Below are positions 21,343 through 61,757 of a stretch of 62,654 bases of DNA, piece by piece (the first letter of the stretch is position 1; each line of letters starts with the position of its first letter). The translations under genes and the position numbers were made by a program. This DNA is from a virus, in the IMG/VR virus record IMGVR_UViG_3300045988_095058; one strand, written 5' to 3'. Below the pieces are notes generated by a model, which did no database searches, was not told the DNA's origin, and was given only the letters and a program-made list of their open reading frames with translations.

Positions 21343-21380
21343 TCTAAATATATTTCCCTCCTGTGATTAAGTTATATAAA
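21343..21380 (+). promoter_or_regulatory. Class-1 bipartite motif, copy L (TCTAAA-N14-GTGATTAAGTTA...)
   Basis: Precedes the SNF2 helicase gene. Exact 14-nt spacing between the two boxes. Confidence 0.55.
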
Positions 21381-21406
21381 GACTAAATCACAGGAGGTTT
21401 ATTTTT

Positions 21407-23086
21407 ATGATAACAGTAGAAAAACTGGAAAAAGGTACTTATTTTGATGATGCTTTTAAGATCTCATTTAGATACGATCCCACTACTGTAGCTAAGGTAA
21501 AAGAGCTTGCAGAGCGGAGATATTTACCAGAGGATAGAGCGTGGGAGATCCCAGCACATGAGCTACCAGCTCTCATAGAGAAAGTAGGGCTTAGCAATAT
21601 CAAAAGTGAGGAGGCTGTAGTACAAGCCCTCAATACTAAGGAGATCGAGGATAAAAGGGAGGCTACACAGGAGAGGCTAAAGGGTATTAAGCCTGTAAGA
21701 GATTTTGATTTTAAAACAGCTCCCCTCCCTCATCAGATCGAGGCTTTTAATTATGGAATGGAGAAAAACTCTTTACTTATCGGAGATGAGCAGGGCTTAG
21801 GCAAGACAAAGGAGAGTATTGATATTTGTGTAGCCAGAAAGAAAGAGCTCATTAAAACTCTTATTGTATGCGGAGTAAACTCTGTAAAATATAACTGGGA
21901 GAAAGAGATCCAGATCCACTCTAACGAGGGCTGTGTAATGGTAGACGGTAAGACAATGGATGTTAGAGTACAACAGCTAAATGACTGGTACAGAGGCTCC
22001 TCTTATTTTGGGGTTATCAATATTGAGAGCCTCAGAAATGAGAAAATACAGGATGCTCTCTATCTGGGGATTAAGGATGGATATATAGGGGCTATTATTG
22101 TGGATGAGATCCACAAGGCTAAAAACGGAGGCTCTCAACAGGGAAAAGCTCTTAGATTTTTGAAAGCTCCAGTTAAGATAGGATTATCTGGTACTCCGAT
22201 GAATAAAGCGGAGGATCTGTGGAATATCCTTACATGGCTGGGAGTAGAGAGGAGATCCTTTTATAGTTTTAGAAATGCCTATTGTACTATGGGAGGTTTC
22301 GGAGGCTATAAAGTAATCGGATATAAAAACTTAGATAGCCTCAATGCTGAGTTAAATACTGTAATGCTTAGAAGAAAGAAAGAGGAGGTACTAGATCTCC
22401 CTCCTAAGCTATACAGTACTGAGTATGTAGAACTTACCACAGCTCAGAAAAAACAGTACAGGGATATTAAAAATGGCATTGTAGCGGATATGGAGAATAT
22501 CTTAGCCTCTGTTAATCCTCTTAACTGTACTCTCCGCCTCAGACAGCTTACCAGCGGTAATCCTAACTTAACAGATGATAGCCCTAAGCTGGATCGTATT
22601 AAGGAGATGCTGGAGGAGGAGATTATCCCTAACGGTCACAAGGCTATCATATTTTCTCAGTGGAGCACGATAGCTAAGGATCTGGGGATAGAGCTTAGTG
22701 AATATGATCCGATTGTAATTACAGGAGAGGTACCTCCAGAGCAGAGGCAGAGATTAGTAGACAATTTCCAGACTAACCCACACTGTAAAGTAGCTATAGG
22801 AACTATCGGAGCTATGGGTACTGGATTAACTCTAAATAAAGCCTCTTATGTATTTTTTATGGATAAAGCATGGAATAGCGGAGATAATGCACAGGCTGAG
22901 GATAGAGCCCACAGAATAGGTACCGTAGGGGCTGTAAATGTAATCTCTATGGTGGCTAAGGGTACAATAGATGAGGCAGTAGAGGATTATCTGTTAGAAA
23001 ATAAAGATCTTATTGATCGAGTAGTAGACGGTAAAGGATCTAAGCAGGATATTAAAACCATCCTTAACAAATTACTTAGCATTTAA
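21407..23086 (+). CDS. SNF2-family DEAD/DEAH helicase
   Basis: LPHQIEAFNYG, GDEQGLGKT (Walker A), VDEIHKAKN (DExH) and C-terminal helicase motifs. Confidence 0.9.
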   Translation: MITVEKLEKGTYFDDAFKISFRYDPTTVAKVKELAERRYLPEDRAWEIPAHELPALIEKVGLSNIKSEEAVVQALNTKEIEDKREATQERLKGIKPVRDFDFKTAPLPHQIEAFNYGMEKNSLLIGDEQGLGKTKESIDICVARKKELIKTLIVCGVNSVKYNWEKEIQIHSNEGCVMVDGKTMDVRVQQLNDWYRGSSYFGVINIESLRNEKIQDALYLGIKDGYIGAIIVDEIHKAKNGGSQQGKALRFLKAPVKIGLSGTPMNKAEDLWNILTWLGVERRSFYSFRNAYCTMGGFGGYKVIGYKNLDSLNAELNTVMLRRKKEEVLDLPPKLYSTEYVELTTAQKKQYRDIKNGIVADMENILASVNPLNCTLRLRQLTSGNPNLTDDSPKLDRIKEMLEEEIIPNGHKAIIFSQWSTIAKDLGIELSEYDPIVITGEVPPEQRQRLVDNFQTNPHCKVAIGTIGAMGTGLTLNKASYVFFMDKAWNSGDNAQAEDRAHRIGTVGAVNVISMVAKGTIDEAVEDYLLENKDLIDRVVDGKGSKQDIKTILNKLLSI

Positions 23087-23105
23087 TATACAGGTGTGGT
23101 ATAAT
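23076..23105 (+). promoter_or_regulatory. Extended -10 promoter (TGgTATAAT) with a weak -35 TTAGCA
   Basis: TGGTATAAT at 23097..23105, 22 nt upstream of the MerR-like ORF start. Confidence 0.4.
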
Positions 23106-23126
23106 AACTCAAAATGGAGGTACATA

Positions 23127-23354
23127 ATGAGAGCGATAACAATAGATGCAGATACAGGAAAAAGAATATATACAAGAAAAGAGGTAGCGGATCTGGTAGG
23201 AGCCTCTACTCAATCTATCCGCCTCTGGGAAGATGCTGGAGCTATTCCAGCCAGTGTAAGAGATGAGGGAGGCTATAGATACTGGTATGAGGAGGATCTG
23301 GAGGCTATAAAGGCTTATGCCTCATTACCGAGAAAAGCAAAACTTAAAAAGTAG
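23127..23354 (+). CDS. MerR-family HTH protein
   Basis: YTRKEVADLVGASTQSIRLWEDAG is a MerR-type HTH. ATG 23127 follows GGAGGTACATA; the track start is 23094. Confidence 0.65.
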   Translation: MRAITIDADTGKRIYTRKEVADLVGASTQSIRLWEDAGAIPASVRDEGGYRYWYEEDLEAIKAYASLPRKAKLKK

Positions 23355-23364
23355 CCCTAAGTGT

Positions 23365-23395
23365 GAGGAGAGTGTAACAGCTCTCCTCTTTTTTT
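23365..23395 (+). terminator. Rho-independent terminator
   Basis: GAGGAGAG-tgtaacag-CTCTCCTC followed by T7. Confidence 0.8.
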
Positions 23396-23415
23396 GCCCT
23401 TAATTTTGAGGGCTA

Positions 23416-23455
23416 TCTAAAAATTTACCGTTTGTGTGATTAGGTTAAGTATCAA
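23416..23455 (+). promoter_or_regulatory. Class-1 bipartite motif, copy A
   Basis: TCTAAA-N14-GTGATTAGGTTAAGTATCAA. Confidence 0.55.
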
Positions 23456-23475
23456 AAGAAAAGGAGGTAAGCAGG

Positions 23476-23784
23476 ATGCTTAAAATCAGTTTTACAAATG
23501 CTGAGGTATCGGATCACGGATACGGTTTAGAGGTAAATGGTAAATCCTTAGAGGATATTATCTCTACCGCCTTAGGAACTAAGGTAAAAGGTAATGGCGG
23601 TTACGGATCTGGATTACCTAGCTTTAGCTCTAATAGCTGTGATGTAACGGTTACTATCAATCCACACGATAAAGAGTGTGAGATTGAAATAGAGGATAAC
23701 GTGTGGCACAGCGTAGAGGAAATGGAGGCAGAAAAGAGTGAGCAGTTTCAAAAGGAAAATGCAGAGGCAGATCCAAAAGAATAA
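23476..23784 (+). CDS. Hypothetical protein
   Basis: 102 aa, RBS AAAGGAGGTAAGCAGG. Confidence 0.6.
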   Translation: MLKISFTNAEVSDHGYGLEVNGKSLEDIISTALGTKVKGNGGYGSGLPSFSSNSCDVTVTINPHDKECEIEIEDNVWHSVEEMEAEKSEQFQKENAEADPKE

Positions 23785-23903
23785 CGGTACCCTCCTCCAC
23801 AAAAAGGTAGTAGCTAGAAAGATGGGCTGTAAATCCGTGGAGGAGTATAACCGTAGAATGGCACGCAGAGAAAAGAATTTAAAAGAGATGGAGGATAACA
23901 AAG

Positions 23904-24116
23904 ATGGCAAATGATTTTACAGCAAGGGTAGCAGGTATCAGCGTAGAGCTGGGTATGAGTGTACAGAATAAGAGTGGTATCTGGTGTAAGCCTACAGTAA
24001 AGATGGATCTTAAGATTGATGGAGGTACGAACCCTCAGCAGAGAGAGGCTATTATTAAACAGGCTTTTGATGAGGTTTGTAATAACATTGAGAAAACCAT
24101 CTCAGAGATGGAGTAA
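23904..24116 (+). CDS. Hypothetical protein
   Basis: 70 aa ORF with RBS GGAGGATAACAAAG. Confidence 0.55.
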   Translation: MANDFTARVAGISVELGMSVQNKSGIWCKPTVKMDLKIDGGTNPQQREAIIKQAFDEVCNNIEKTISEME

Positions 24117-24124
24117 TACTTACA

Positions 24125-24134
24125 GGGGGGGGGG
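24125..24134. repeat. Intergenic G10 homopolymer
   Basis: Ten consecutive G, read directly, 37 nt upstream of the DnaD-like gene start. Confidence 0.95.
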
Positions 24135-24170
24135 AGAGTATCTCTCCTCTCTCCTTAACTGGAGGTAATT

Positions 24171-24929
24171 ATGGATCACAGTTTTAATATAAATGTGGCT
24201 AAAAAGCTGGGGATAGCCTCAGCGGTAATACTAAACAATCTGTACTGGTGGATTGATAAAAACAGGGCTAACGATAAGCATTTTCACGATGGTTACTACT
24301 GGACTTATAACAGTAGAAAAGCCTTTGTAGAGCAATTTCCATACCTCACAGAGAGGCAGATAGAGTATGCACTAAGAAAGCTCATAGATGGAGGCTATGT
24401 AATTACTGGAAATTACAATAAAGCCTCCTTTGATCGTACTCTCTGGTATGCCATCACAAAAGAGGGGTATTGCATTTTACAAAATTGTGAAATGGAAGAA
24501 ACAAAAGTGTTAAATGCAAACAACAGAAATGTAGAACCTATACCAGATATAAACACAGATAGTAAACCAGATAAGAAGAAAGAAAGTAAAACAGAGCCAG
24601 AGGAGAGCTTTGACGATATAATAAATTCCTTAGTGGATAATGATGATATTAAAGGCGTGTTAGTGGAATTTATCAAAATGCGTAAACTCATAAAGAAACC
24701 TCTAACAAACAGAGCTCTAAAAAATATCATCTCAAAGTTAAAAAAATTAGCTGGAGAGGATGTTACTTTAGCAGGAGCTATACTGGATCAAAGTATTACC
24801 AATAGCTGGCAGGATATATACCCATTAAAGGATCTGAATAAAAAAGTAGGAGGAAAGCCTACAGCGGTTAGTAAAAAGTTTAGCGGTAATACCCTTAAAG
24901 ATGCTGAGGGTAAGGATATTGTATTTTAG
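24171..24929 (+). CDS. DnaD-like replication initiation / replisome organizer protein
   Basis: N-terminal winged-helix-like region. C-terminal segment VLVEFIKMRKLIKKPLTNRALKNIISKL...WQDIY is typical of DnaD/DnaB_2 domains. Confidence 0.65.
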   Translation: MDHSFNINVAKKLGIASAVILNNLYWWIDKNRANDKHFHDGYYWTYNSRKAFVEQFPYLTERQIEYALRKLIDGGYVITGNYNKASFDRTLWYAITKEGYCILQNCEMEETKVLNANNRNVEPIPDINTDSKPDKKKESKTEPEESFDDIINSLVDNDDIKGVLVEFIKMRKLIKKPLTNRALKNIISKLKKLAGEDVTLAGAILDQSITNSWQDIYPLKDLNKKVGGKPTAVSKKFSGNTLKDAEGKDIVF

Positions 24930-24936
24930 TAATCTG

Positions 24937-24970
24937 GAGGAGAGTGTAAAAGCTCTCCTCTAAATTTTTA
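24937..24970 (+). terminator. Hairpin terminator; its 3' end overlaps the TCTAAA box of copy B
   Basis: GAGGAGAG-tgtaaaag-CTCTCCTC followed by TAAATTTTT. Confidence 0.55.
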
Positions 24971-24996
24971 CCTCTTTTGTGATTAGGATTACTCAA
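24959..24996 (+). promoter_or_regulatory. Class-1 bipartite motif, copy B
   Basis: TCTAAA-N14-GTGATTAGGATTACTCAA. Confidence 0.5.
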
Positions 24997-25012
24997 AAGG
25001 AGGTAAAAGCGG

Positions 25013-25675
25013 ATGAAATGCTATGCAAGTGATTATTGCCAGAAAGATAAAAGCTCCTGTAGTGATGTATGCGGAGGCTACAGAGTACTTAGAGCTTTAT
25101 ACAATTTAAGCAGGATCCCAGAGAGATACCGTTATACTATCGCTCTTAAGCCAGAGAATGGAGAGGATCTGGAGGCGTTTACAGTGCTGGATAACTATAA
25201 AAATGATGTGCTCAATATGGTAGATGAGGGCAGAGGCTTATATATCTGGGGAAAGAGTACAGGGAATGGTAAAACCTCATGGGCTTGTAAGATTATGAGT
25301 TACTTTTTCAGAAAAATAGCGTTTAATACAGGGCTGGAAAATGAGGGGCTATATATTTTTCTCCCCACTTTCTTAGAAGATCTCAGAGATAACTATGATA
25401 ACAAAGATCCAGAGTTTGATGAGATACTCAGAATGATAAAAACCTGTAGGCTCCTCATCATAGACGATATAGGAGCCGAGAGGGTAACGGACTGGGTAAG
25501 GGAGAGGATGGTAAGTATCATAAATACCAGAGTATCTAATAACCTCACTACGATCTATACCAGTAACCTCTCTCCAGAGGAGCTTAGGGGCGAGTTAGGG
25601 GATCGGATAGCCAGTAGAGTATTGGGATCCTCACAGGTAGTAGAAATTACAAGCGGAGATAGGAGGGGATTATAA
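25013..25675 (+). CDS. DnaC/IstB-like helicase loader ATPase
   Basis: Walker A GKSTGNGKTS and Walker B LLIIDDIGAE. Confidence 0.8.
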   Translation: MKCYASDYCQKDKSSCSDVCGGYRVLRALYNLSRIPERYRYTIALKPENGEDLEAFTVLDNYKNDVLNMVDEGRGLYIWGKSTGNGKTSWACKIMSYFFRKIAFNTGLENEGLYIFLPTFLEDLRDNYDNKDPEFDEILRMIKTCRLLIIDDIGAERVTDWVRERMVSIINTRVSNNLTTIYTSNLSPEELRGELGDRIASRVLGSSQVVEITSGDRRGL

Positions 25676-27022
25676 ATGGCTAATATGATTGAGCAGAGCT
25701 TACTCTGTAAAGTATTAGATGCTCCAGATCTGGAGATCCTCCACTCTAACGGAGTAATAGAGGAGATGTTTCTTACCTGTAAGGATGAGATCCATTTTAT
25801 CATAGAGCATTACAACAGCTATAAGCAGATGCCAGATAAACTAACCTTTTTAGGCAGGTTCAAAGATTTTCAAATGCTGGAGGTTACAGAGAGTACAGAT
25901 TACTTAGTATATAAGCTCAAAGAGGCTTACACATATACTAAGCTGGTGCCTCTGATTGAGGATACAGCAAAGGTAGTAAAAGAGGATAGTATTAAGGCTA
26001 TCCAGTACCTCAAAGAGGAGATAGAAAAGCTGGAGAAATCCGTACCAGTGAGCAGGAATAAAGATGGCTATGATATTATCTCTAACGCTGGAGATCGCCT
26101 TACAGAGTATAAAAAGCGTTGTGAGGTAAAGGGGCTTATAGGTATTCCTACAGGTATCCCTAAGCTGGATGAGATTACTAATGGCTGGCTCTGGGGAGAG
26201 GATCTGGTAGTACTCACAGGGCGTACTAACGTAGGTAAAACGTGGATCGGAGAGTACTTTGCTACTATGGCGTGGAACATGGGTTATAAGATCCTTATGT
26301 ACTCTGGAGAAATGAGTACCGCTATGGTTGGTTTTCGTTTTGATACTCTCAATAAGCACTTTAGTAATATGGGGCTCCTTAATGGATCTGGTACTCTGGG
26401 AAAGAAACCAGATACAGACGGAGCAAAGTACTTACAGGAGGATTATGAGAAGTACATAACACAGCTCCAGCAAAAGAGCGGATTTATCGTAGTTACTCCA
26501 GATGATTTTGAGGGGCGTAAGCCTAATGTAGATGAGATCAAGAGCTTAGCTATTAAGCATGGGGCGGATATGATTGTAATAGATCAGCTCTCTCTTATGA
26601 GTGATAAGCGTAGGGCGGATATACCTAGAATAGCTTATAATAATATCTCAGAGGATCTCTTTTTGATGAGTAAGGAGCTTAAAAAGCCTGTACTCCTTAT
26701 GGCACAGGCTAACCGTGAGGCAGTTAAGAACCGTAAAAAAGGGGAGAGCCCAGAGCTCCACGATCTGGCAGAGAGTGACGGTGTAGGACAGAACGCCACA
26801 AGAGTATTATCTCTATCCGTGATAGATGGCACTCTTAAGATCAGTGTTAAGAAAAACAGATATGGTATCAATAACAAAGAGGTACTTATGATCTGGGAAG
26901 TAAACACAGGATACCTTAAGCCCCTCCTTAGTGAAAATCCAGAGGAGAGCACAGAGGATAAAAAGGATGATAAATCAGATGGAGAAAAGGATAAAGGAGG
27001 AGAGAAAGACTATGGTTTCTAA
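25676..27022 (+). CDS. dnaB: Replicative DNA helicase (DnaB family)
   Basis: 448 aa, Walker A GRTNVGKTW, with DnaB-like N- and C-terminal organisation. Confidence 0.85.
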   Translation: MANMIEQSLLCKVLDAPDLEILHSNGVIEEMFLTCKDEIHFIIEHYNSYKQMPDKLTFLGRFKDFQMLEVTESTDYLVYKLKEAYTYTKLVPLIEDTAKVVKEDSIKAIQYLKEEIEKLEKSVPVSRNKDGYDIISNAGDRLTEYKKRCEVKGLIGIPTGIPKLDEITNGWLWGEDLVVLTGRTNVGKTWIGEYFATMAWNMGYKILMYSGEMSTAMVGFRFDTLNKHFSNMGLLNGSGTLGKKPDTDGAKYLQEDYEKYITQLQQKSGFIVVTPDDFEGRKPNVDEIKSLAIKHGADMIVIDQLSLMSDKRRADIPRIAYNNISEDLFLMSKELKKPVLLMAQANREAVKNRKKGESPELHDLAESDGVGQNATRVLSLSVIDGTLKISVKKNRYGINNKEVLMIWEVNTGYLKPLLSENPEESTEDKKDDKSDGEKDKGGEKDYGF

Positions 27023-27233
27023 AGGCGGAGTACCTAAGGGGAGGATCATCCCTGTATATCTTACAGATGAGGGAGATGTGTACCCTATTTATTTACATGA
27101 GATGGGAGAGTTAGAGATTATACAGAGGCTTGTAGCAGGTATCTTAGATAATAAAATTGTGGTAGATACTAATACCAGAATTAACTCAGAGAATGATAAA
27201 ATCTCTATTTTTGATTTAAGTAAGAAAAAATAA
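27012..27233 (+). CDS. Hypothetical protein
   Basis: 73 aa from ATG 27012, preceded by AAAGGAGGAGAG. The track start at 26931 lies inside dnaB. Confidence 0.5.
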   Translation: MVSKGGVPKGRIIPVYLTDEGDVYPIYLHEMGELEIIQRLVAGILDNKIVVDTNTRINSENDKISIFDLSKKK

Positions 27234-27243
27234 TAAAAATTTC

Positions 27244-27283
27244 TCTAAATGTTACCTCTTTTTCTGATTAGGTTAAGTAAATC
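27244..27283 (+). promoter_or_regulatory. Class-1 bipartite motif, copy C
   Basis: TCTAAA-N14-cTGATTAGGTTAAGTAAATC. Confidence 0.5.
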
Positions 27284-27305
27284 GGAAAAGGAGGTACTTT
27301 TTTAT

Positions 27306-27773
27306 ATGACGATTACAAGTAAGGAAGTAGCGGAGATGCTGGGAAAGAGGCACGATAACCTTTTGAGAGCGATCCGCAAATATATTACACAGTTAGGAGA
27401 TGAGGCTCCTAAGTATTTCTCAGAGGATCCAGATAAGGGCGGTAGATTGTACCACATTACTAAGGCTGGCTGTGATCTTATGGCAGGGCGTATTATCGGA
27501 GCTCAGAGTGAGGCTTTTAAGACTAAGTATGCTCCAGTGTTTGGAGAGGAGGCTCCTGTAGAGGTGGTAGAGGAAAAGCAGGAGGAGCCACAGGAGAAAG
27601 CCTACACAGTAGAGGAGGTAGCTCAGATCTTAGGCTGTAGTGAGAGAAATGTTTATAGAAATATCCAGAGCGGAAAGCTGGAGGCGGTAGAGCGTGAGGT
27701 AATGATCCCTACTCTTAAGAAGTTTGTAACGGAGGAGGCTCTGGAAAAATATAAAGCAGGGAGGGCTAGTTAA
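27306..27773 (+). CDS. Rha-family phage regulatory protein with a C-terminal excisionase-type HTH
   Basis: ITSKEVAEMLGKRHDNLLRAIRK is a Rha signature. The C-terminus has YTVEEVAQILGCSERNVYRNIQSGKL. Confidence 0.65.
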   Translation: MTITSKEVAEMLGKRHDNLLRAIRKYITQLGDEAPKYFSEDPDKGGRLYHITKAGCDLMAGRIIGAQSEAFKTKYAPVFGEEAPVEVVEEKQEEPQEKAYTVEEVAQILGCSERNVYRNIQSGKLEAVEREVMIPTLKKFVTEEALEKYKAGRAS

Positions 27774-28036
27774 TGAACTACTTTGAAATGAAATGGAGGC
27801 TCTCCGCTTGCAGAATACAAGCAGGGTACTCACAGGCAGAGGTGGCAGAGATCTTAGGCTGTAGTGATAAGACTATTGTTAGCTGGGAAACAGGTAAGAC
27901 AGCTCCTAAGATGGAGAAAGCACAGGAGCTTAGTGATCTGTACGGTATCCCTCTGGCTTATATGGATTTTTCAAAGGCTGGAAACTCTACACCTCTTAGA
28001 GAGCGTGAGAGTGAGCCACAGATCCCAGCTTTTTAA
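27773..28036 (+). CDS. XRE-family HTH regulator
   Basis: GYSQAEVAEILGCSDKTIVSWETGKTAP. Confidence 0.7.
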   Translation: MNYFEMKWRLSACRIQAGYSQAEVAEILGCSDKTIVSWETGKTAPKMEKAQELSDLYGIPLAYMDFSKAGNSTPLRERESEPQIPAF

Positions 28037-28055
28037 TTTATAGGAGGAAAAAAAG

Positions 28056-28496
28056 ATGATTAAAGGACAGTTTGCAAAAAATTTACACAAAGCAGTTTCA
28101 GAGAGAGGGATTAAGCAGGTAGAGCTTGCTAAGGTGCTGGAGGTACCGCCTACTACAGTAAATGGGTGGATGAGAGGAGCCCATTTACCAGACATTGAGA
28201 AGTTAATGGAAATTTGTGATTATTTGGAAATGCCTGTAGGAGAGATGTTAGGAGATCATAGACATATTAACGATTTAGACGAGGTTAAGCATCTTATGGA
28301 TGTATCGCTTAAACAGAAAGCCTATATTGAAAATTTAGAGGCGGAGCTTAATGAGTGTAAAATGTTAAATAATCAGCTTATGAGCGATCTGGATGCAGAT
28401 GAGGGGCTTGCAGAAATTTGTGTGAATGAGTTTATTGCAGATACCATAAAGGATGTAAAAGACGCTGGCGTAAAGAAGATTACGGTTGAGTTTTGA
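28056..28496 (+). CDS. XRE-family HTH regulator with a coiled-coil C-terminus
   Basis: GIKQVELAKVLEVPPTTVNGWMRG. Confidence 0.7.
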   Translation: MIKGQFAKNLHKAVSERGIKQVELAKVLEVPPTTVNGWMRGAHLPDIEKLMEICDYLEMPVGEMLGDHRHINDLDEVKHLMDVSLKQKAYIENLEAELNECKMLNNQLMSDLDADEGLAEICVNEFIADTIKDVKDAGVKKITVEF

Positions 28497-28541: not shown

Positions 28542-28919
28542 TTACTCCTCTTTAAGATTTTGTAGCTCATTGATGCGTTGAGCTAATCCCTTAAGTAGCT
28601 CCAGATCCTTATCTGATAGTGAGATAGATAGCTTAAATAAATCGTATAGAGAGGGCTTACTCTCTAAGATCTTTGAGATTAAAGCAGGATCAGTAGAAAA
28701 CTTTTCCTGTGAGAAAATCTCTGGATCTCTTAGGAGATCCGTAGCATCTATCCCTAGATAAGTTGCTACAGCCTCAATCCTATCCATTCTAGGAGTGTTC
28801 TTTCCAGTACACCATTGAGAAACTGTAGAGGAGCTGTAGTGGAGATCGTTGATTAGATCTTGCTGAGTTTTACCTTTTACCGCTAGGTAGTAGGTAAGTG
28901 CTTTAGTAAATGTACTCAT
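28542..28919 (-). CDS. CI-like repressor (XRE HTH); the only minus-strand gene
   Basis: KTQQDLINDLHYSSSTVSQWCTGKNTP. Divergent from an operator-rich intergenic region. Confidence 0.8.
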   Translation of the reverse strand: MSTFTKALTYYLAVKGKTQQDLINDLHYSSSTVSQWCTGKNTPRMDRIEAVATYLGIDATDLLRDPEIFSQEKFSTDPALISKILESKPSLYDLFKLSISLSDKDLELLKGLAQRINELQNLKEE

Positions 28920-28955
28920 TGTTTTTACACCTCCTCTCCTTTGAGGGATAAGTTA

Positions 28956-28984
28956 ATTATACAGTATTACAGAGAAAAAGTAAA
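28956..28984 (-). promoter_or_regulatory. Candidate repressor-maintenance promoter
   Basis: On the minus strand: TTTACT, 17-nt spacer, TATAAT. Confidence 0.35.
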
Positions 28985-29001
28985 GTAAAACAGAGATAAA
29001 A

Positions 29002-29016
29002 CTCTGTAAAACAGAA
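29002..29016. promoter_or_regulatory. Operator O1 CTCTGTAAAACAGAA
   Basis: One of four 15-bp sites fitting CTCTGnnAAACAGAG. Confidence 0.55.
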
Positions 29017-29025
29017 AATTAGGTA

Positions 29026-29054
29026 TTGACATCTCTGTAAAACAGGATTATATT
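29026..29054 (+). promoter_or_regulatory. Rightward early promoter (PR-like)
   Basis: TTGACA, 17-nt spacer, TATATT. Operator O2 lies inside the spacer. Confidence 0.65.
29033..29047. promoter_or_regulatory. Operator O2 CTCTGTAAAACAGGA
   Basis: Occupies the spacer of the TTGACA/TATATT promoter. Confidence 0.55.
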
Positions 29055-29063
29055 ATAATTGTT

Positions 29064-29078
29064 CTCTGAGAAACAGAG
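29064..29078. promoter_or_regulatory. Operator O3 CTCTGAGAAACAGAG (perfect 5-5-5 palindrome)
   Basis: CTCTG and CAGAG arms around a 5-nt core. Confidence 0.6.
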
Positions 29079-29122
29079 AGAACACAGAGGGGGTACTCCC
29101 CTCATATATTTTTGCTATCAAT

Positions 29123-29137
29123 CTCTATTAAACAGAG
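29123..29137. promoter_or_regulatory. Operator O4 CTCTATTAAACAGAG
   Basis: Fits the same consensus, 42 nt upstream of the first rightward gene. Confidence 0.5.
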
Positions 29138-29178
29138 AATGATATACAATAAAACAGAGATAAAGGAGGTACAAGCTA

Positions 29179-29565
29179 ATGAATTTAGCAGAGTTAAAGG
29201 AGGCTTATAAAGCCAGAAAGTTAGCCTTAGACAGTGCAAAGAAAGAGGAGGAGAAATACAAGGCACTCCTTAAGGATGCGATGTTAGAGGCTGGAGAAAG
29301 TGATTACACGGATGAGGCTGGATACCGCTTTGAGCGAATTGTGCAGGAGCGTAAGAGCATGGATGAGGAAAAGCTCTTAGCAGAACTCCATGAGAGAAAC
29401 CTTACTAGCTGTATCGCAACTAAGGAGGTTGTAGATGAGGATGCAACTCTTAAGGCGGTAGAGGCTGGAGAGTTGCCACAGGAAGTATTAGCAGATGCCT
29501 TAAAGGTAACAGAGGTAGTAATGCTTAAGCTCACAGCTCCTAAAAAGGCAAAGGCTAAAAAGTGA
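29179..29565 (+). CDS. Hypothetical early protein
   Basis: 128 aa, first gene of the rightward operon. Coiled-coil with a lysine-rich tail. Confidence 0.6.
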   Translation: MNLAELKEAYKARKLALDSAKKEEEKYKALLKDAMLEAGESDYTDEAGYRFERIVQERKSMDEEKLLAELHERNLTSCIATKEVVDEDATLKAVEAGELPQEVLADALKVTEVVMLKLTAPKKAKAKK

Positions 29566-30601: not shown

Positions 30602-31210
30602 ATGAGTAAAGGATTTATTACAGGAACAAATGAGGAACTTATTAAAGCGTACAAAGAGAGTAGAGATGAGAGCTATCTTAAAGAGCTCATAGAGGCTAAC
30701 AAGGGGCTTATTAACCTTTTAGTATCCCCATATTTAACCTCTATCCCTAATTCTGAGTTAGAGGATCTTACAAGTGAGAGCTATATACCGATGCTTAGAG
30801 CTATAGAGGATTACGATCCAGAGCAGGGAGTAGCTTTTTCTACTCTCCTTAAGGTTTATGTACGCCAGCACCTTAACCGTTTATACAACGAGGCTACACG
30901 CCAGAAAAGATTTACAGGTACCACTCCAGATAGCTTAGATCGGTTATCCGAGATCAATAAAGAGGGAGGTACAGAAACAGATAGCACCTTTGAGGTAGAG
31001 TGTAAGGATTTTAGCTCTGTAGAGTTTATGGATCTCTTAGATAGCTTACAGCTCAATGATAAGGAGCAGGTAGCGGTAAATATCCTCATGGCTGGAGGAG
31101 CTAAGGGAGAGATTGCTAAGGCTCTCAATATTACTAATGCTACCGTAAGCTGGCATATCAAGAACCTCAAAAAGAAATTTATTTTAGCTGGTTATCAATA
31201 TGCTGTCTAA
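30602..31210 (+). CDS. Sigma-70-family RNA polymerase sigma factor
   Basis: Region 2-like LIEANKGLINLLV...EDLTSESYIPMLRAIEDYDPEQGVAFSTLL. Region 4-like KGEIAKALNITNATVSWHIKNLKKK. Confidence 0.8.
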   Translation: MSKGFITGTNEELIKAYKESRDESYLKELIEANKGLINLLVSPYLTSIPNSELEDLTSESYIPMLRAIEDYDPEQGVAFSTLLKVYVRQHLNRLYNEATRQKRFTGTTPDSLDRLSEINKEGGTETDSTFEVECKDFSSVEFMDLLDSLQLNDKEQVAVNILMAGGAKGEIAKALNITNATVSWHIKNLKKKFILAGYQYAV

Positions 31211-31245
31211 ATAATCTGGGTGGATGTGATTAAGTTATTTATCAC
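31206..31245 (+). promoter_or_regulatory. Class-1 bipartite motif, copy D
   Basis: TCTAAA (overlapping the sigma gene stop codon)-N14-GTGATTAAGTTATTTATCAC. Confidence 0.55.
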
Positions 31246-36486: not shown

Positions 36487-36494
36487 AAATTTAA

Positions 36495-36532
36495 TCTAAA
36501 GAAACCTCCTTTATGTGATTAGGATCGATCAA
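36495..36532 (+). promoter_or_regulatory. Class-1 bipartite motif, copy E
   Basis: TCTAAA-N14-GTGATTAGGATCGATCAA. Embedded in a 12-bp inverted repeat that includes the RBS. Confidence 0.55.
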
Positions 36533-36553
36533 AACATAAAGGAGGTTTTTCTA

Positions 36554-37113: not shown

Positions 37114-37143
37114 AGGAGGTGTAAAAAGCCTCCTCTTTTTTTT
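37114..37143 (+). terminator. Rho-independent terminator
   Basis: AGGAGG-tgtaaaaag-CCTCCT followed by CT8. Confidence 0.75.
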
Positions 37144-37144
37144 A

Positions 37145-37184
37145 TCTAAATTTACTTACCGTTTGTGATTAGGTTACTTATCAA
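37145..37184 (+). promoter_or_regulatory. Class-1 bipartite motif, copy F
   Basis: TCTAAA-N14-GTGATTAGGTTACTTATCAA. Confidence 0.55.
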
Positions 37185-37354: not shown

Positions 37355-38412
37355 TGGGATTAAAGAGCTTAATAGCAGTAGCACAAGGAAAAAATGCAGA
37401 GAGCGTATCCTTTGAGGATAAGTTTCTTAAAAATTATGAGGAGGCTGTAAAGGCTAAGGAGCTGGAGGAGAGGCAGATAGCCCCATCTGAGTATATCCGC
37501 CCATCCTCTATGTATGGCTGTGAGCGTATGTTATTTTTCCAGAGAGTACATGGAGGCTCCCAGAATGGAGAGCAGAGTGAGGTAAATCTTATTGAGATAT
37601 GCCAGAGCGGTACAGATAGGCACTTAGACATACAGCACATAGTAGAGCGTATGGAGGGTGTAGAGTGCTTAGATCTGGAGGAAATGGTAAAAGAGGCACA
37701 GGCTAAAGGCATTAAAACAGAGTTTGTAGGCTGGAATGAGGATCACACAGAGGGCAGATGTAAAAATGATGAGCTTTCTATTTATTTCCAGCCAGACGGA
37801 GTTATTAGATTTAATGGTAAGGATATAATCTTAGAGATTAAAACAGAGAGTACTTATCAGTTTAGTAACCGTTATGAGCCTAAGGCGGATCATAAGTGGC
37901 AAGCTACTTGTTACGGTATGGGGCTGGGGATAGATTATATCCTTTTCTTTTATGAGGATAGAAATTTTTGTAAAAAGAAACCGTACCTCTGGAAAATAAC
38001 CGATGAGATGAAACAGGCAGTACTTAACAAGATACGAACTGTAAACAATGCTTGTAAAACAGGGATCCCTCCAGAGAAAGATGATAGCAAGTGTACATAC
38101 TGTAGATATAAAAATGAGTGTGCTTTAGTGGATGCTGGTAAGTGGGTACATCCTAACCCTCCAGAAAAGCCTCAGACAGCCAAGAAAGATACAAACAGAA
38201 AAAAGGATAATAAGTCTACAGGTAAAAAGAAAAAAGCCTCTACAGGGCAAAATACAGCGTTGAGAGCGGTATGTGGTAACTGTGAGCATTGTGGTAGAGA
38301 GCTGGGAGCTTACTACTGTAGCATTGATAAAGATGGATCTATGTATGTAGATCGTAGAAAGAAATGTAAGTTTACTCCTAGCAGGTTTAAGGGGGTACAG
38401 GATGGCAAGTAA
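37354..38412 (+). CDS. PD-(D/E)XK (Cas4/RecB-like) nuclease with a Lys-rich, zinc-ribbon C-terminal extension
   Basis: GCERMLFF, FQPDGVI and ILEIKTES segments plus a CTYCRYKNEC cluster. The tail has CGNCEHCG. Confidence 0.65.
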   Translation: MGLKSLIAVAQGKNAESVSFEDKFLKNYEEAVKAKELEERQIAPSEYIRPSSMYGCERMLFFQRVHGGSQNGEQSEVNLIEICQSGTDRHLDIQHIVERMEGVECLDLEEMVKEAQAKGIKTEFVGWNEDHTEGRCKNDELSIYFQPDGVIRFNGKDIILEIKTESTYQFSNRYEPKADHKWQATCYGMGLGIDYILFFYEDRNFCKKKPYLWKITDEMKQAVLNKIRTVNNACKTGIPPEKDDSKCTYCRYKNECALVDAGKWVHPNPPEKPQTAKKDTNRKKDNKSTGKKKKASTGQNTALRAVCGNCEHCGRELGAYYCSIDKDGSMYVDRRKKCKFTPSRFKGVQDGK

Positions 38413-38875
38413 TAACATCGGTAAAACCTTTGAGCAGGAGTTTAAGGAGTGTGTACCTCCAGATTATTACCTGTATCGCCTAAAGGATGATACAAGCGGA
38501 TTTTATGGAGTATCTAATCCATGTGATTATATTCTTTTCAGATCTCCTTATCTCTTTCTGGTAGAGCTTAAAACCCATAAGGGAAAGAGTATACCGATAG
38601 CTAAGATCAGACCTAACCAGATACAGGGGATGGAGAAAGCTACTCAATATGAGGGAGTGTATGGAGGCTTTTTAATCAATTTTAGAGAGCTGGAGGAAAC
38701 ATATTACATAACCGTACAGGATGTGATCCAGTTTACTCAGACGGAGGAGAGAAAGAGTATACCTGTAGAGTGGTGCAGGGATCACGGAGTAAAGATAGAG
38801 CAGAAAAAGAAAAGAGTGAGATACAGCTACGATTTGGAGAGCTGGTTAAGGAGGTACTATGGAAAATCCATGTAG
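38402..38875 (+). CDS. RecU-like Holliday junction resolvase
   Basis: GKTFEQEF...NPCDYILF...LVELKTHKG is a PD-(D/E)XK pattern typical of RecU. Confidence 0.55.
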   Translation: MASNNIGKTFEQEFKECVPPDYYLYRLKDDTSGFYGVSNPCDYILFRSPYLFLVELKTHKGKSIPIAKIRPNQIQGMEKATQYEGVYGGFLINFRELEETYYITVQDVIQFTQTEERKSIPVEWCRDHGVKIEQKKKRVRYSYDLESWLRRYYGKSM

Positions 38876-39703: not shown

Positions 39704-39937
39704 ATGGAGCGATGGGCTTATGAGTACTTTAGGAGGCAAGCCATAGAGGATAGATGTAAGCAGGAGGCACAGTGGCTAATTGATAACCCTAAAGACAGTA
39801 TCCGTAAAATGGCTAAAGAGTTTTGTATAAGTAAGAGCCAGCTACATAGAGATCTCCATGAGCTCAGAAATATAGATGATGATCTCTATGTACAGTGTAG
39901 AAATATTTTAAGGAGGCATAAAAGACGATGTTTATAA
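39704..39937 (+). CDS. SpoIIID-like HTH transcriptional regulator
   Basis: SIRKMAKEFCISKSQLHRDLHELRNIDDDLYVQCRNILRRH parallels the SpoIIID segment IAKEFGVSKSTVHKDL...L...V..IL. Confidence 0.55.
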   Translation: MERWAYEYFRRQAIEDRCKQEAQWLIDNPKDSIRKMAKEFCISKSQLHRDLHELRNIDDDLYVQCRNILRRHKRRCL

Positions 39938-40448: not shown

Positions 40449-40926
40449 TAAGCCAGTATTTTATATGTTAGTTGGATTGCCAGCCAGCGGTAAAAGCTCT
40501 GAGAGTGATAGGCTGGGAGATGTAATTGTTAGATCCTCCGATTATCTCAGAGATAAGCTCTGTGGAGATATAAACGATATGAAAAATAATGGTGCTGTGT
40601 TTACCATTTTACAGAGTTTGGTTAGAGCGGATCTATATCATGGTAAGGATGTAGTATATGATGCTACAAACTTAAAAGCGAGTTATAGAGTGGAGTTTTT
40701 GGATACTCTTAGGTTATTAAACTGTAAAAAGGTTTGTGTATTTGTAGATACTCCTTTTGAGGTTTGTGTTAAGCGTAACGAGGAAAGGGAGCGTACAGTA
40801 CCTAAGGAGGCTATGGAAAGGATGAAAAGATTTTTAGAGCCTCCTACTTTTGCTGAGGGCTGGGATGAGATACGAGTAGTTAAAAATTGGGATGAAAAGG
40901 AGAATAGCGATGGCGGAGATAGATAA
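40438..40926 (+). CDS. P-loop kinase (AAA_33 / polynucleotide kinase-like)
   Basis: Walker A VGLPASGKSS near the N-terminus. Confidence 0.6.
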   Translation: MENNKPVFYMLVGLPASGKSSESDRLGDVIVRSSDYLRDKLCGDINDMKNNGAVFTILQSLVRADLYHGKDVVYDATNLKASYRVEFLDTLRLLNCKKVCVFVDTPFEVCVKRNEERERTVPKEAMERMKRFLEPPTFAEGWDEIRVVKNWDEKENSDGGDR

Positions 40927-42189: not shown

Positions 42190-42218
42190 TTGACATTATT
42201 ATATAGGGGGTGTATATT
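42190..42218 (+). promoter_or_regulatory. Sigma-A-type promoter
   Basis: TTGACA, 17-nt spacer, TATATT. The spacer ends GGGGGTG, similar to the integrase promoter. Confidence 0.6.
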
Positions 42219-45598: not shown

Positions 45599-45610
45599 TA
45601 CCAGATAGAG

Positions 45611-45639
45611 AGAGGATCTTAGGATCCTCTTTTTTTTTA
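45611..45639 (+). terminator. Rho-independent terminator
   Basis: AGAGGATC-tta-GGATCCTCT followed by a long T-run. Confidence 0.8.
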
Positions 45640-45640: not shown

Positions 45641-45680
45641 TCTAAATTTACTTACCGATTGTGATTAAGTTAAGTATCAC
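45641..45680 (+). promoter_or_regulatory. Class-1 bipartite motif, copy G
   Basis: TCTAAA-N14-GTGATTAAGTTAAGTATCAC, with the dyad GTGAT-N10-ATCAC. Confidence 0.55.
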
Positions 45681-48216: not shown

Positions 48217-48256
48217 TCTAAATTTTCCTCATATTGAGGATTAAGTTATTTATCAA
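48217..48256 (+). promoter_or_regulatory. Class-1 bipartite motif, copy H (variant)
   Basis: TCTAAA-N14-aGGATTAAGTTATTTATCAA. Confidence 0.45.
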
Positions 48257-49265: not shown

Positions 49266-49273
49266 TACAGGGA

Positions 49274-49311
49274 GTGGTACATTTTGTAAGAAAAGATGTA
49301 CCACTTTTTTC
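49274..49311 (+). terminator. Rho-independent terminator
   Basis: GTGGTACA...TGTACCAC followed by T6. Confidence 0.75.
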
Positions 49312-49318: not shown

Positions 49319-49358
49319 TCTAAAAATCCTCCTCAAAAGTGATTAGGTTATATATCAA
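49319..49358 (+). promoter_or_regulatory. Class-1 bipartite motif, copy I
   Basis: TCTAAA-N14-GTGATTAGGTTATATATCAA. Confidence 0.55.
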
Positions 49359-53404: not shown

Positions 53405-53444
53405 TCTAACTTTTTAAGGTTTATGTGATTATGTTACTTATCAA
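53405..53444 (+). promoter_or_regulatory. Class-1 bipartite motif, copy J
   Basis: TCTAAc-N14-GTGATTATGTTACTTATCAA. Confidence 0.5.
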
Positions 53445-53465
53445 ACATAAGGAGGTAAGCATAAT

Positions 53466-54937: not shown

Positions 54938-54954
54938 AGGCAGAGGTTAGGGAG

Positions 54955-54981: not shown

Positions 54982-54997
54982 AGTTAGGAGGGATTAT

Positions 54998-55677: not shown

Positions 55678-55834
55678 TTTAGGAAGATGCAAACATACAC
55701 TCTATATCCTTAAGCATAAGCCAGAATATACAAAAGGCTGGGGCTGGAGGTGTAGATACTGTGGCAGGACTTATAAAGACCTCAGAGAGGAGGCAGAGTA
55801 TAAAGAGCGTGAGAGGAGGAGTAGAACATGGTAG
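55670..55834 (+). CDS. Hypothetical small protein (54 aa)
   Basis: ATG overlaps the upstream stop. Has CKH...CRYCG. Below the track cutoff. Confidence 0.4.
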   Translation: MSDLGRCKHTLYILKHKPEYTKGWGWRCRYCGRTYKDLREEAEYKERERRSRTW

Positions 55835-56016
55835 CAGGATTATTAAAGCTGGTATTTATCCTCTGTACCATAGCGGTAGTAGGATTATCGGTAGTAGATA
55901 CTCTCTGGTTTAATGCTATGCCAGAGAGTAACCGTTATAAGAATGTACAGGCGTTTAATGTGGTTACGCTGTGGATCGTAGCTATAGTACTTATTATCAA
56001 ACTGGTAACGATGTAG
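55828..56016 (+). CDS. Small membrane protein
   Basis: 62 aa with two TM helices. Confidence 0.5.
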   Translation: MVAGLLKLVFILCTIAVVGLSVVDTLWFNAMPESNRYKNVQAFNVVTLWIVAIVLIIKLVTM

Positions 56017-56038
56017 GGAGCTAACAGGCTCCCTTTTA
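56016..56038 (+). terminator. Rho-independent terminator
   Basis: GGGAGC-taacag-GCTCCC followed by TTTT. Confidence 0.65.
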
Positions 56039-56066
56039 TTATGCGTAGAAAGGAGGTTAGGCGGAT

Positions 56067-57557: not shown

Positions 57558-57562
57558 TGTAA

Positions 57563-57590
57563 AAGCCCTAATAAGTGAGGGCTTATTTTT
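57563..57590 (+). terminator. Hairpin terminator or attenuator
   Basis: AAGCCC-taataagtga-GGGCTT followed by ATTTTT. Confidence 0.55.
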
Positions 57591-57616
57591 ATGCAGAAAA
57601 GGAGGATATAAGCAAT

Positions 57617-59176: not shown

Positions 59177-59210
59177 AAGGGCTATATGAGGCTGTAAGGA
59201 GGTGTAAAGA

Positions 59211-61412: not shown

Positions 61413-61425
61413 GAGGTGCAGTAGT

Positions 61426-61671
61426 ATGAAAGTAGAATATGATGATATTGATATTAAACTTTTCAAATCGGATCCTATTGGGAGAGTGTACTTAGAGTAT
61501 AATGATACCGTAGGAGGGGAGCCCTTTAACAGGTGCGGTGTAGAGGGCGTGGATATTGATAAGCTATATGGTGGAGAGATTGGTTTATACCACGAGTGTA
61601 TTAAGCAGAGAAAAACGTGGGAGGATCTTTTAGGCGTAAAAGTTAATAGTGATATAATGGTAGAGGCGTAG
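61426..61671 (+). CDS. Hypothetical small protein immediately after the MuF fusion gene
   Basis: 81 aa, RBS TAGGAGGTGCAGTAGT. Confidence 0.5.
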   Translation: MKVEYDDIDIKLFKSDPIGRVYLEYNDTVGGEPFNRCGVEGVDIDKLYGGEIGLYHECIKQRKTWEDLLGVKVNSDIMVEA

Positions 61672-61678
61672 TTTATAA

Positions 61679-61719
61679 GAGGCTAATAGGTGTAAAAACT
61701 TGTTAGCCTCTTTTTTTTT
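61679..61719 (+). terminator. Rho-independent terminator
   Basis: GAGGCTAA...TTAGCCTC followed by T9. Confidence 0.8.
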
Positions 61720-61720
61720 G

Positions 61721-61757
61721 CCTAAATTTTGAGGAGAAATCTGATTAAGATAGATAA
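61721..61757 (+). promoter_or_regulatory. Class-1 bipartite motif, copy K (variant)
   Basis: cCTAAA-N14-cTGATTAAGATAGATAA. Confidence 0.4.

Follow-up and report, generated by a model that had tools for sequence, protein, structure and literature searches.

Bacteriophage SPO1 runs a cascade of sigma factors, in which sigmaA serves the early promoters, Gp28 the middle and Gp34 the late ones (PMC13401047). In phage T4, gene e and the gene of I-TevI carry a late promoter in the 5' arm of a hairpin that sequesters the Shine-Dalgarno sequence (SD): transcripts begun at this promoter lack the arm and are translated, while read-through RNA folds and its SD is buried (PMC3014915). In this report, we analyzed a stretch of 62,654 nucleotides, the IMG/VR virus record IMGVR_UViG_3300045988_095058 (the whole of it is referred to as the window), which is the genome of a temperate myovirus of Lachnospiraceae and contains twelve copies of a bipartite motif in front of genes. 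Our main conclusion is that the twelve sites are probably promoters of a phage family, most likely read by a sigma factor of the phage's own. In about half of the copies, moreover, the spacer between the two boxes is complementary to the downstream SD region, an arrangement for which we propose, more tentatively, a role in translation.

A rigid bipartite motif at twelve intergenic sites

The full motif reads T-n-TCTAAA-N14-[G/C]TGATTA-R-GTTA-NN-TATCA. An earlier reading of this DNA, made from the letters alone (hereafter the sequence-only reading), had listed twelve copies, all on the + strand and intergenic, and every one was found where it had been placed (Table 1). The spacer of 14 nt between the boxes is present in 12/12 copies, as that reading also held; the boxes and their spacing therefore stand, but the terminal TATCA box is weak or absent in the copies at 21343, 24959, 27244, 36495 and 61721. 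The core TCTAAA-N14-STGATTA has nine exact matches in the window, all on the + strand, against 0.01 expected in shuffled controls, and the 40-nt pattern with at most three mismatches has eight, against 0 expected. When both strands were scanned with a position weight matrix (PWM), trained on the same 12 copies that it scored, these reached 36-55 bits and the next best site 16.8, a gap that sets the number at exactly 12, with none on the minus strand. Three copies depart from the consensus by one or two bases (AGGATTA at 48217, TCTAAC at 53405 and CCTAAA at 61721). A degenerate thirteenth copy proposed at 26..60 had to be given up: its PWM score is below 12 bits, its GATTA lies 3 nt too close to its TCTAAA, and this TCTAAA is not conserved in the relatives L223, L227, L255 and L260. 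Since the window ends with the same 98 nt with which it begins, this candidate turns up at both ends.

The motif also keeps a regular distance to the genes behind it. The SD starts 38-49 nt past the T of TCTAAA in 11 copies (61 nt past it in the copy at 48217), that is, 18-29 nt past the start of the downstream box in 11/12, and start codons lie 52-74 nt downstream of all 12 copies. Six copies (23416, 24959, 37145, 45641, 49319 and 61721) stand directly behind a terminator, recognized by its hairpin and T-run, and begin 1-10 nt past the T-run, in agreement with the sequence-only reading. Two boxes at a constrained distance, co-oriented upstream of genes, are what is expected of a sigma-dependent bipartite promoter. 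The starts of the boxes are 20 bp apart, a register of sigmaB, sigmaD and sigmaH type, not of sigmaA type. In a scan for sigma-70-type promoters, no sigmaA-type promoter (TTGACA-16-18-TATAAT) was found at the copies; the only match within one of them is a weak TTATCA-16-CATAAT (9/12) at 53438-53465, in the copy at 53405, whose scanned region has fewer such matches than the shuffled expectation. Nor is there a match to a sigmaD/sigma28 promoter, whose consensus is TAAA-N15-GCCGATAT: CTAAA is similar, but the -10 element is GTGATTA and its GAT core is 2 bp closer. The consensus of sigmaH is RNAGGAWWW-N11-12-RNNGAAT, and that of sigmaB is GTTTAA-N12-14-GGGTAT.

Phages, and not their hosts, carry this signal. 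An 18-position pattern of the motif is present in at least 120 IMG/VR stretches, mostly from the human gut and often with 2-4 occurrences per contig. Among 185,579 one-per-species genomes (596 Gb), it was found in 30 stretches, where chance alone predicts about 35 (2 strands x 596e9 x 0.5 x 4^-17), and the convincing matches are multi-copy, phage-like contigs of Lachnospiraceae or Clostridium metagenome-assembled genomes; matches at chance level mean that the motif is not a host regulon signal. Relatives share only about 40 nt per site while orthologous positions are retained, so that the motif is not a mobile repeat; a repeated mobile sequence unrelated to expression is what the sequence-only reading had considered fatal to its proposal.

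In related phages the motif is conserved at syntenic sites and varies with the clade of the sigma factor. Two classes can be told apart. Class A (N14 + [G/C]TGATTA) accompanies sigma factors 41-100% identical to that of the window, with 1-7 sites per locus and zero of class B; class B (N14-17 + GTTAT[T/C]AC, its promoter sequences being written GTTATTAC) accompanies the clade at 34-39% identity, with 1-6 sites per locus and zero of class A. The two classes never occur in the same locus (20 loci), and all sites lie on the gene strand. Within class A, TCTAAA-N14-[G/C]TGATTA is found at orthologous positions where the sigma factor is 65-73% identical (L184, L185, L186), and again at 54-56% (L193, L211); at 46% (L194) the site is TTTAAC-N14-CTGATTAGGTT, present twice, and at 42% (L196) it is TCTAAA-N14-CGAATTAGATTA. 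Within class B, at 37-39% identity (L198, L199, L206, L207), TTG-TCTAAA is followed after 14-17 nt, mostly 16-17, by GTTAT[T/C]ACT; at 34% (L187) the first box is CCTAAA and the remainder is as in the L198 group. Counterparts of copy 12 are present in L223, L227 and L220. No recognizable site was found in the 6.7 kb of L209, and L197 (4.9 kb) is devoid of an intergenic region after its sigma gene; the contigs of the distant sigma relatives L196, L265, L266 and L267 are too short to inform. The 89 non-redundant instances of class A, with a spacer of N14 throughout, yield the consensus T-n-TCTAAA-AAT-N10-T-GTGATTA-R-GTTA-NN-TATCA, with a C/T-rich spacer. Conserved beyond the search pattern are T-1, AAT at 7-9, T20, GTTA at 29-32 and TA at 35-36.

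A phage sigma factor as candidate reader

The protein encoded at 30602-31210 was taken for a sigma factor in the sequence-only reading, and on this Pfam, PDB profiles, the AlphaFold2 (AF2) model and Foldseek agree. Pfam recognizes Sigma70_r2 (29.7 bits, cut-off 24) and a helix-turn-helix (HTH) of GerE/LuxR type at residues 154-194 (29.3 bits, cut-off 23.5). A profile built from 39 members of the family, compared with the PDB, retrieves sigmaF (1l0o, 8e-15) and a sigmaH-like factor (3mzy, 7e-14); residues 5-120 align with region 2 of many sigma factors, and the C-terminal HTH aligns with region 4 of sigmaF and 3mzy. The AF2 model has a predicted local distance difference test (pLDDT) score of 86 overall and about 97 in the helical bundle 10-99, and the 50 top Foldseek matches listed are all sigma factors, B. 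subtilis SigH being the best, followed by SigB and SigD. The protein has no sigma3 domain and reaches none of the NCBIfam subfamily cut-offs (SigF, SigH, FliA/SigD, SigB/F/G, ECF), its best scores being 40.4 for SigF PRK07408 (cut-off 261), 38.5 for sigma70-ECF (42.9) and 25.8 for FliA_WhiG (189.6). Judged by its profile matches and its structural model, it is a sigma factor of the two-domain type. Among the open reading frames (ORFs) of the window, no phage-encoded RNA polymerase, such as a single-subunit enzyme of T7 or N4 type, was found, and the large ones are all otherwise assigned (tape-measure protein, tail proteins, reverse transcriptase, PolA, integrase, SNF2 helicase, TerL, portal and head morphogenesis).

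The sigma gene is the third of an operon headed by the promoter at 29026, behind the ORF at 29179 (128 aa) and a primase gene. One copy of the motif overlaps its stop codon, as had been noted before, and this is so in every relative examined. Of the ordinary sigmaA promoters that the sequence-only reading had placed elsewhere in the genome, TTGACA-17-TATATT is indeed present at 29026 and 42190, but the site at 19448 has a weaker -35 element (TTGTAT-17-TATAAT). The promoters at 19448-19476 and 42190-42218 share GGGGTGTATA(A/T)T; the former precedes the integrase gene, the latter follows a terminator and precedes a 184-aa ORF without family match, and both may be expressed in the lysogen. In the immunity region (28940-29170), between the cI-like gene and the rightward operon, at least five operator-like repeats AAACAGAG(A) surround the divergent promoters, and a GC-rich hairpin lies at 29087-29103, just past the rightward one. 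On non-syntenic contigs, distant relatives of the sigma gene are preceded by a strong sigmaA promoter with perfect palindromes on its flanks (ATCTAAGAGCTCTTAGAT, for instance, occurs twice; promoter regions at L197 3400-3564, L265 1-116 and L266 100-279), which suggests that the sigma factor is under repressor control in other phage lineages too. A further observation concerns the linker between sigma2 and sigma4, which is 3-5 residues longer in class B sigma factors than in that of the window (alignment A1, columns ~150-165); as class B promoters have a spacing of 16-17 and those of the window 14, a link between linker length and promoter spacing is suggestive.

The sites could also be promoters read by a host factor, either an alternative sigma factor (sigmaD/FliA-like or sigmaH-like) or sigmaA together with a phage HTH activator. 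We regard this as unlikely. CTAAA does resemble the -35 element of sigmaD/sigma28, but GTGATTA and the spacing are unlike the sigmaD consensus, and the exact motif is at chance level in the species genomes, its real occurrences being on phage-like contigs. Activators would not be wanting, given the many HTH proteins of the phage (Rha, several of Cro/CI type, MerR-like, SpoIIID-like), and the box past the -10-like element is unusually long; however, no sigmaA-like hexamers are present at the sites, whereas good sigmaA promoters exist elsewhere in the window. The dyad GTGAT-N10-ATCAC, which the sequence-only reading had pointed out as a possible operator, does occur in two copies (31206 and 45641), but its halves do not covary consistently in relatives, where CTGAT...ATCAC is frequent, and class B lacks it, so that the operator alternative finds no comparative support. 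Finally, a sigma factor expressed behind an early promoter needs targets, and the PWM scan disclosed no other repeated candidate.

All computational tests capable of refuting it favoured a phage-specific promoter, which supports the promoter reading. We infer that the reader is most likely the phage sigma factor, acting on the host core polymerase; the twelve sites as a class of promoters of its own, as first guessed from the sequence, is the interpretation that we hold to be probable. Readings as an operator, as a mobile repeat or as an element acting in RNA only are less likely.

Spacer hairpins over the Shine-Dalgarno sequence

A second layer, missed by the sequence-only reading and newly found here, lies in the spacer. 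In about half of the copies it is complementary to the downstream SD region (for example AAACCTCCTTTAT / ATAAAGGAGGTTT in the copy at 36495; further cases are those at 27244, 21343 and 24959), and the predicted hairpins have folding energies of -17 to -25 kcal/mol, with z-scores of -2 to -5.8. They are strong in the copies at 21343, 24959, 27244 and 36495, and moderate in those at 37145, 45641 and 49319. Divergent relatives pair with different sequences, namely ACCGCCTCCTTTT / AAAAGGAGGCGGT, AATAAGCCTCCTTT / AAAGGAGGCTTATT and GCCTCTTTTT / AAAAAGAGGC. In an alignment-free duplex test of 148 sequences, spacers bound their own partner with -11.2 kcal/mol, against -9.4 (standard deviation 0.16) for permuted partners and -7.0 for shuffled spacers.

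Covariation was most apparent upstream of the Rha gene, in the orthologues of the copy 4 hairpin, where compensatory changes are present. For 11 orthologues, aligned by their CCTC and GAGG cores only, the covariation score was 0.285 against 0.126 in shuffles, a value reached by 0/500 of these; next to the CCTC/GAGG core, 6 sequences have an A-U pair and 5 a G-C pair, and the proposed structure pairs 84.5% of cells, compared to 42-50% for slid controls. MAFFT followed by RNAalifold predicted no structure for the Rha-upstream orthologues, their arms being misaligned by indels. A crude anchoring of all instances on the core gave a modest effect, with 1.54 contiguous pairs against 1.04 when permuted (permutation maximum 1.60). 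Among 32 strong helices, U.G mismatches outnumber A.C ones (10 vs 2, p = 0.04), which points to a folded RNA of + sense. The covarying pairs are at motif positions 7-12; the RNA that folds therefore starts 5' of the spacer, and is read-through RNA, not RNA initiated at the site. Hairpins are also stronger where an upstream terminator is missing: among 116 non-redundant instances the mean is -13.3 kcal/mol without and -9.5 with a terminator, and strong hairpins make up 56% and 23%, respectively (p = 0.002). Taken from sequence comparison, these results support the view that the spacer acts as the anti-SD arm of a conserved hairpin under selection for pairing. The geometry of T4 gene e and I-TevI, with the SD in the 3' arm and a 5' arm that lies before the class-specific start, is found in about half of the copies. 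Stems measure 9-20 bp. At 21343 and 27244 the stem is succeeded by a U-rich tail (7 T in 9 nt), and a U-run follows the hairpin in the relatives L194 and L007 as well, so that termination, too, is possible behind several hairpins; the terminator scan of the window did not call those that span the promoter.

A real, covarying hairpin of + sense, with a conserved box in its loop that is tightly coupled to the SD, could also be read as an RNA element and nothing else, that is, a structured leader of read-through transcripts whose loop is bound by a translational regulator, an antiterminator or a nuclease. Long transcripts are possible, as all genes but one lie on one strand. We consider this improbable, since the 5/12 copies without a hairpin still have both boxes at the exact 14-nt spacing, and this invariant distance, independent of the length and position of the stem, is a trait of recognition on B-DNA. 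In addition, the six terminator-linked copies start 1-10 nt past a T-run; no promoter other than the motif copies is present for the left-arm genes (21407-28496), which in the lysogen are preceded by nothing but host DNA; and no Rfam family matches.

A further alternative takes TCTAAA for a -10-only element, like the T4 late promoter TATAAATA, with a start in the spacer and GTGATTA as an RNA operator. Sigma factors that need just a -10 element exist (T4 gp55, ComX-type); TCTAAA and TATAAT agree at 4/6 positions, and 5' of TCTAAA only the T at -1 is conserved. The sigma4 HTH domain of the sigma factor described here is complete, however; with a start some 7 nt past TCTAAA, positions 7-12, which bear the covarying pairs, would be lost; and the spacing of class B, mostly 16-17 (range 14-17), is the typical behaviour of -35 and -10 elements. 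This makes the alternative quite improbable. That the motif is a recombination linker or mobile sequence at cassette boundaries, with no role in expression, is highly improbable: homology breakpoints relative to near-identical prophages are enriched near motif units (5/34 vs 4.5% expected, p = 0.017), at 36494 the motif alone is retained and the methyltransferase gene behind it exchanged (L191 has a D12-class methyltransferase gene instead), and the copies at 37145 and 45641 share spacer and terminator, but orientation is strict, the distance to SD and start is fixed, no copy lies in coding sequence or on the minus strand, box-specific conservation over deep divergence argues for purifying selection on a binding site, 29/34 breakpoints lie elsewhere, and cassettes can be expected to be exchanged at promoters as a by-product, in the manner of the PeSL cassettes of T4-type phages, which are promoter-early stem-loop units at module boundaries. 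We read the breakpoint enrichment as such a by-product of short shared sequences, and not as a function of the motif.

With the sites taken as phage-sigma promoters, the following sequence of events can be proposed. The twelve sites would be middle-class promoters, with TCTAAA as a -35 element contacted by sigma4, [G/C]TGATTA, 14 bp further on, as a -10 element contacted by sigma2, and R-GTTA-NN-TA as discriminator and start region; the start is predicted about 34-36 nt past the T of TCTAAA, where T-A is conserved at 35-36. Lifting of the cI-like repressor would let the sigmaA-type promoter at 29026 express the 128-aa ORF, the primase gene and the sigma gene, and the sigma factor would then switch on the 12 units, which comprise replication, recombination, methylase, nucleotide-metabolism and packaging genes. 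RNA entering from upstream would form the hairpin and bury the SD, whereas sigma-started RNA would begin in the loop, lack the 5' arm and leave the SD free. The hairpin would in this manner insulate each unit from read-through and tend to stand in for an upstream terminator. The class might then work as an AND gate of transcription and translation, the spacer doubling as an anti-SD arm around the -10 box and the start: RNA that reaches a unit from the chromosome of the host, from an early operon or past a leaky terminator would be silenced or terminated, and only RNA initiated with the phage sigma factor would be translated, which would amount to a family-wide prophage insulation, interchangeable with a terminator. 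We offer the gate as a tentative idea, somewhat short of an even chance.

Several observations speak against the promoter and gate readings. Neither TCTAAA nor GTGATTA fits a characterized sigma consensus, and the conservation of some 20 nt past the -10 element is unusual and could mark a second factor. In the syntenic phages every gene diverges together, so that co-variation with the motif does not single out the sigma factor, and the family instances entering the statistics are not phylogenetically independent. As for the hairpins, four copies of the window have strong ones, three moderate and five none; anti-SD pairing did not differ significantly between motif and non-motif genes of the window (p = 0.08); and canonical intrinsic terminators have loops of 3-8 nt, shorter than those found here, which span 10-24 nt with some closure by inner pairs.

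Genome context and comparison with known systems

The window was assembled as a circle: positions 1-98 and 62557-62654 are identical, which implies a circular assembly with overlap and a true length of 62,556 bp. It encodes tail sheath, tape-measure and baseplate proteins, TerL, portal, scaffold and major head proteins, a CHAP/LysM endolysin and a large serine recombinase, and the cI-like gene is the only clear minus-strand gene. No tRNA was found in the window, and an Rfam 15 scan of its whole length gave 0 matches at the gathering score. No cultured relative emerged when 20 kb of the window were compared by megablast with 50,697 phage records (INPHARED), nor any relative of the sigma protein from tblastn against the same records; a related-locus search with protein P0130 found none. 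The exact sigma protein, on the other hand, has index entries in 18,654 blocks of public assemblies; its contigs reach 1.85 Mb and include chromosome-sized ones, and this places the phage among the commonest prophages of dominant human-gut Firmicutes. The protein is assigned to Lachnospiraceae by the names of its sources, and one host flank is an exact match to SpoVG of Lachnospira / Eubacterium sp. CAG:252. Accession ACR73132.1 is presumably that of Eubacterium rectale ATCC 33656. According to a 2026 preprint, ATCC 33656 carries an inducible prophage, possibly that of the window, which belongs to a highly prevalent gut viral cluster; the preprint makes no mention of sigma factors or promoters. 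We found no description of this sigma factor or this motif in the literature.

Homology between the window and three long bacterial contigs starts at ~21214-21224, a point within the 3'-terminal part of the gene for the large serine recombinase (19609-21327). The C-terminus of the integrase is therefore altered upon integration, and the copy at 21343 is the first regulatory element within the left end of the prophage. Host flanks differ between two lysogens, a response regulator gene in one and GlmU-like and SpoVG genes in the other.

The claim that no copy precedes a core virion gene holds for the gene directly downstream, but the copy at 53405 is the only recognizable promoter 5' of the TerL, portal and head-morphogenesis genes, and between it and TerL there is only a weak hairpin (56015-56034). 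The TerL start lies about 30 nt past this hairpin and its weak T-tract (56015-56066), with no promoter between; the hairpin may be an attenuator or an RNA-stabilizing structure. The late operon, from scaffold to lysis, has in front of it the terminator at 62537-62570 and then some 170 nt of conserved leader, which is without the motif. Its conservation extends to relatives with no more than 58-70% identity in the major head protein, in the blocks ATACATATTTT, TA(A/C)CCT(A/T)ACTTATG, AAGGGTT and AACTTACGAGGGAT. It shows one compensatory change (CCCTA/TAGGG vs CCCTT/AAGGG), alternative pairings look possible, and no Rfam family matches. It probably comprises a late promoter and a structured RNA leader, and a third, late signal probably exists.

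Two side observations may be added. A diversity-generating retroelement occupies 13567-17123, with a variable repeat at 15229-15361, a template repeat at 15463-15595 and a reverse transcriptase gene (phrog_1423) adjoining at 15786-17123; over its 133 nt, the template repeat shares 78% identity with the tail-fibre gene at the 3' end of the latter, and 28/29 mismatches are at template adenines. The window also encodes a SpoIIID-family regulator (39704-39937), a RecA/UvsX-like recombinase (40892-41920) and RecU (38402-38875); a regulator of sporulation type, carried by a prophage of Lachnospiraceae, could have host genes among its targets.

Table 1. Motif copies, hairpins, terminators and regulatory genes of the window (free energies in kcal/mol)
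Feature	Position	Strand	Remarks
Motif copy 1	21343..21382	+	TCTAAA-N14-GTGATTAAGTTA; precedes SNF2 helicase gene at 21407
Copy 1 hairpin	21357..21397	+	Arms CCCTCCTGTGATT / AATCACAGGAGG, enclosing the -10-like box; 3' arm is the SD, then TTTATTTTT; minimum free energy -23.7, z -5.8
Intrinsic terminator	23365..23388	+	Directly 5' of copy 2
Motif copy 2	23416..23455	+	Precedes 102-aa ORF at 23476
Intrinsic terminator	24935..24962	+	3' end overlaps TCTAAA of copy 3
Motif copy 3	24959..24998	+	Precedes DnaC/IstB-like ATPase gene (25013) and DnaB-like helicase gene
Copy 3 spacer/SD hairpin	24967-25007	+	Predicted by folding
Motif copy 4	27244..27283	+	CTGATTA; precedes Rha-family regulator gene at 27306
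Copy 4 hairpin	27253..27296	+	17 bp, spacer with SD region, then TTTTTTAT; -21.2, z -3.8
cI-like HTH repressor gene	28542..28919	-	Adjoins promoter region of sigma operon
SigmaA-type promoter	29026..29054	+	TTGACA-17-TATATT; immunity region
Phage sigma factor gene	30602..31210	+	202 aa; sigma2 10-99, disordered linker, sigma4 135-195
Motif copy 5	31206..31245	+	TCTAAA holds the TAA stop of the sigma gene; without hairpin; followed by 52-aa ORF (31268), 210-aa ORF, DNA polymerase A
Motif copy 6	36495..36534	+	Precedes MT-A70 methyltransferase gene at 36554; homology breakpoint
Copy 6 hairpin	36501..36549	+	AAACCTCCTTTATGTGAT / ...ATAAAGGAGGTTT; strongest; 3' arm is the SD; -25.4, z -5.3 (second folding run, -23.5)
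Intrinsic terminator	37114..37134	+	5' of copy 7
Motif copy 7	37145..37184	+	Precedes 49-aa ORF (37205), then 352-aa ORF with weak Cas4-like match; spacer pairs with start-codon region
Intrinsic terminator	45607..45634	+	5' of copy 8
Motif copy 8	45641..45680	+	Precedes MmcB-like domain protein gene at 45700; spacer nearly identical to that of copy 7
Motif copy 9	48217..48256	+	AGGATTA; precedes DUF7666/collagen-repeat protein gene at 48291
Intrinsic terminator	49269..49309	+	5' of copy 10
Motif copy 10	49319..49358	+	Precedes 104-aa ORF (49380) with weak, sub-threshold winged-HTH match
Motif copy 11	53405..53444	+	TCTAAC; precedes DUF3310/nucleotide-kinase-like gene, then thymidylate synthase gene
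Intrinsic terminator	61679..61719	+	5' of copy 12
Motif copy 12	61721..61760	+	CCTAAA...CTGATTAAGATA; precedes 250-aa ORF without assigned function, then terminator 62537-62570
Late-operon leader	62537-62654 continuing into 1-171		Precedes scaffold gene

Phage regulation in Lachnospiraceae is little known, and the present analysis offers a regulatory map made up of a repressor, a sigmaA promoter, a sigma gene and 12 units. If the hairpin design works as proposed, the device of T4 gene e would be a general, evolvable way of insulating cassettes, which would bear on prophage silence and on the design of synthetic circuits. The sigma factor and its promoters, along with the natural class B variant, might furnish an orthogonal pair for Lachnospiraceae, which are hard to engineer.

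Among Firmicutes sigma factors, those of SigH type are the nearest: the best fold matches of the window's factor are B. subtilis SigH, SigB and SigD, its best profile matches sigmaF and the sigmaH-like 3mzy, and the 20-bp register of the boxes is similar. It differs from them in falling below all NCBIfam cut-offs, in lacking sigma3, and in having boxes that match none of their consensuses. With SPO1 and the gp55 system of T4, the resemblance is one of regulatory logic. There, host sigmaA promoters express a small phage sigma factor that redirects the host core polymerase to a phage-only consensus; here, the sigma gene is behind a sigmaA-type promoter and twelve phage-only sites follow. The sequences are nonetheless unrelated, no INPHARED phage has this sigma factor, and the consensus is another one; the phage is a temperate gut prophage of Lachnospiraceae, whereas SPO1 and T4 are lytic phages of Bacillus and E. 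coli; a single recognizable sigma gene is present, instead of two or more; and the late operon, whose leader lacks the motif, probably uses a separate signal. As with the PeSL cassettes, terminator-promoter units flank small accessory blocks and coincide with some breakpoints, but the enrichment is modest (5/34), and the promoters are sigma-specific middle ones, not sigma70 early ones.

The hairpins of the window have the same geometry as that of T4 gene e, and their function is predicted only. In T4 the arrangement is described for single genes, few in number, whose late promoter consists of a -10 element only, whereas here it concerns about half of the promoters of one class, throughout a phage family; the anti-SD is the spacer between the -35 and -10 elements, and hairpin strength is inverse to the presence of an upstream terminator. 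The promoter class is a new one of a known kind, while the systematic placement of promoters in hairpins varies the T4 gene e principle in a new way.

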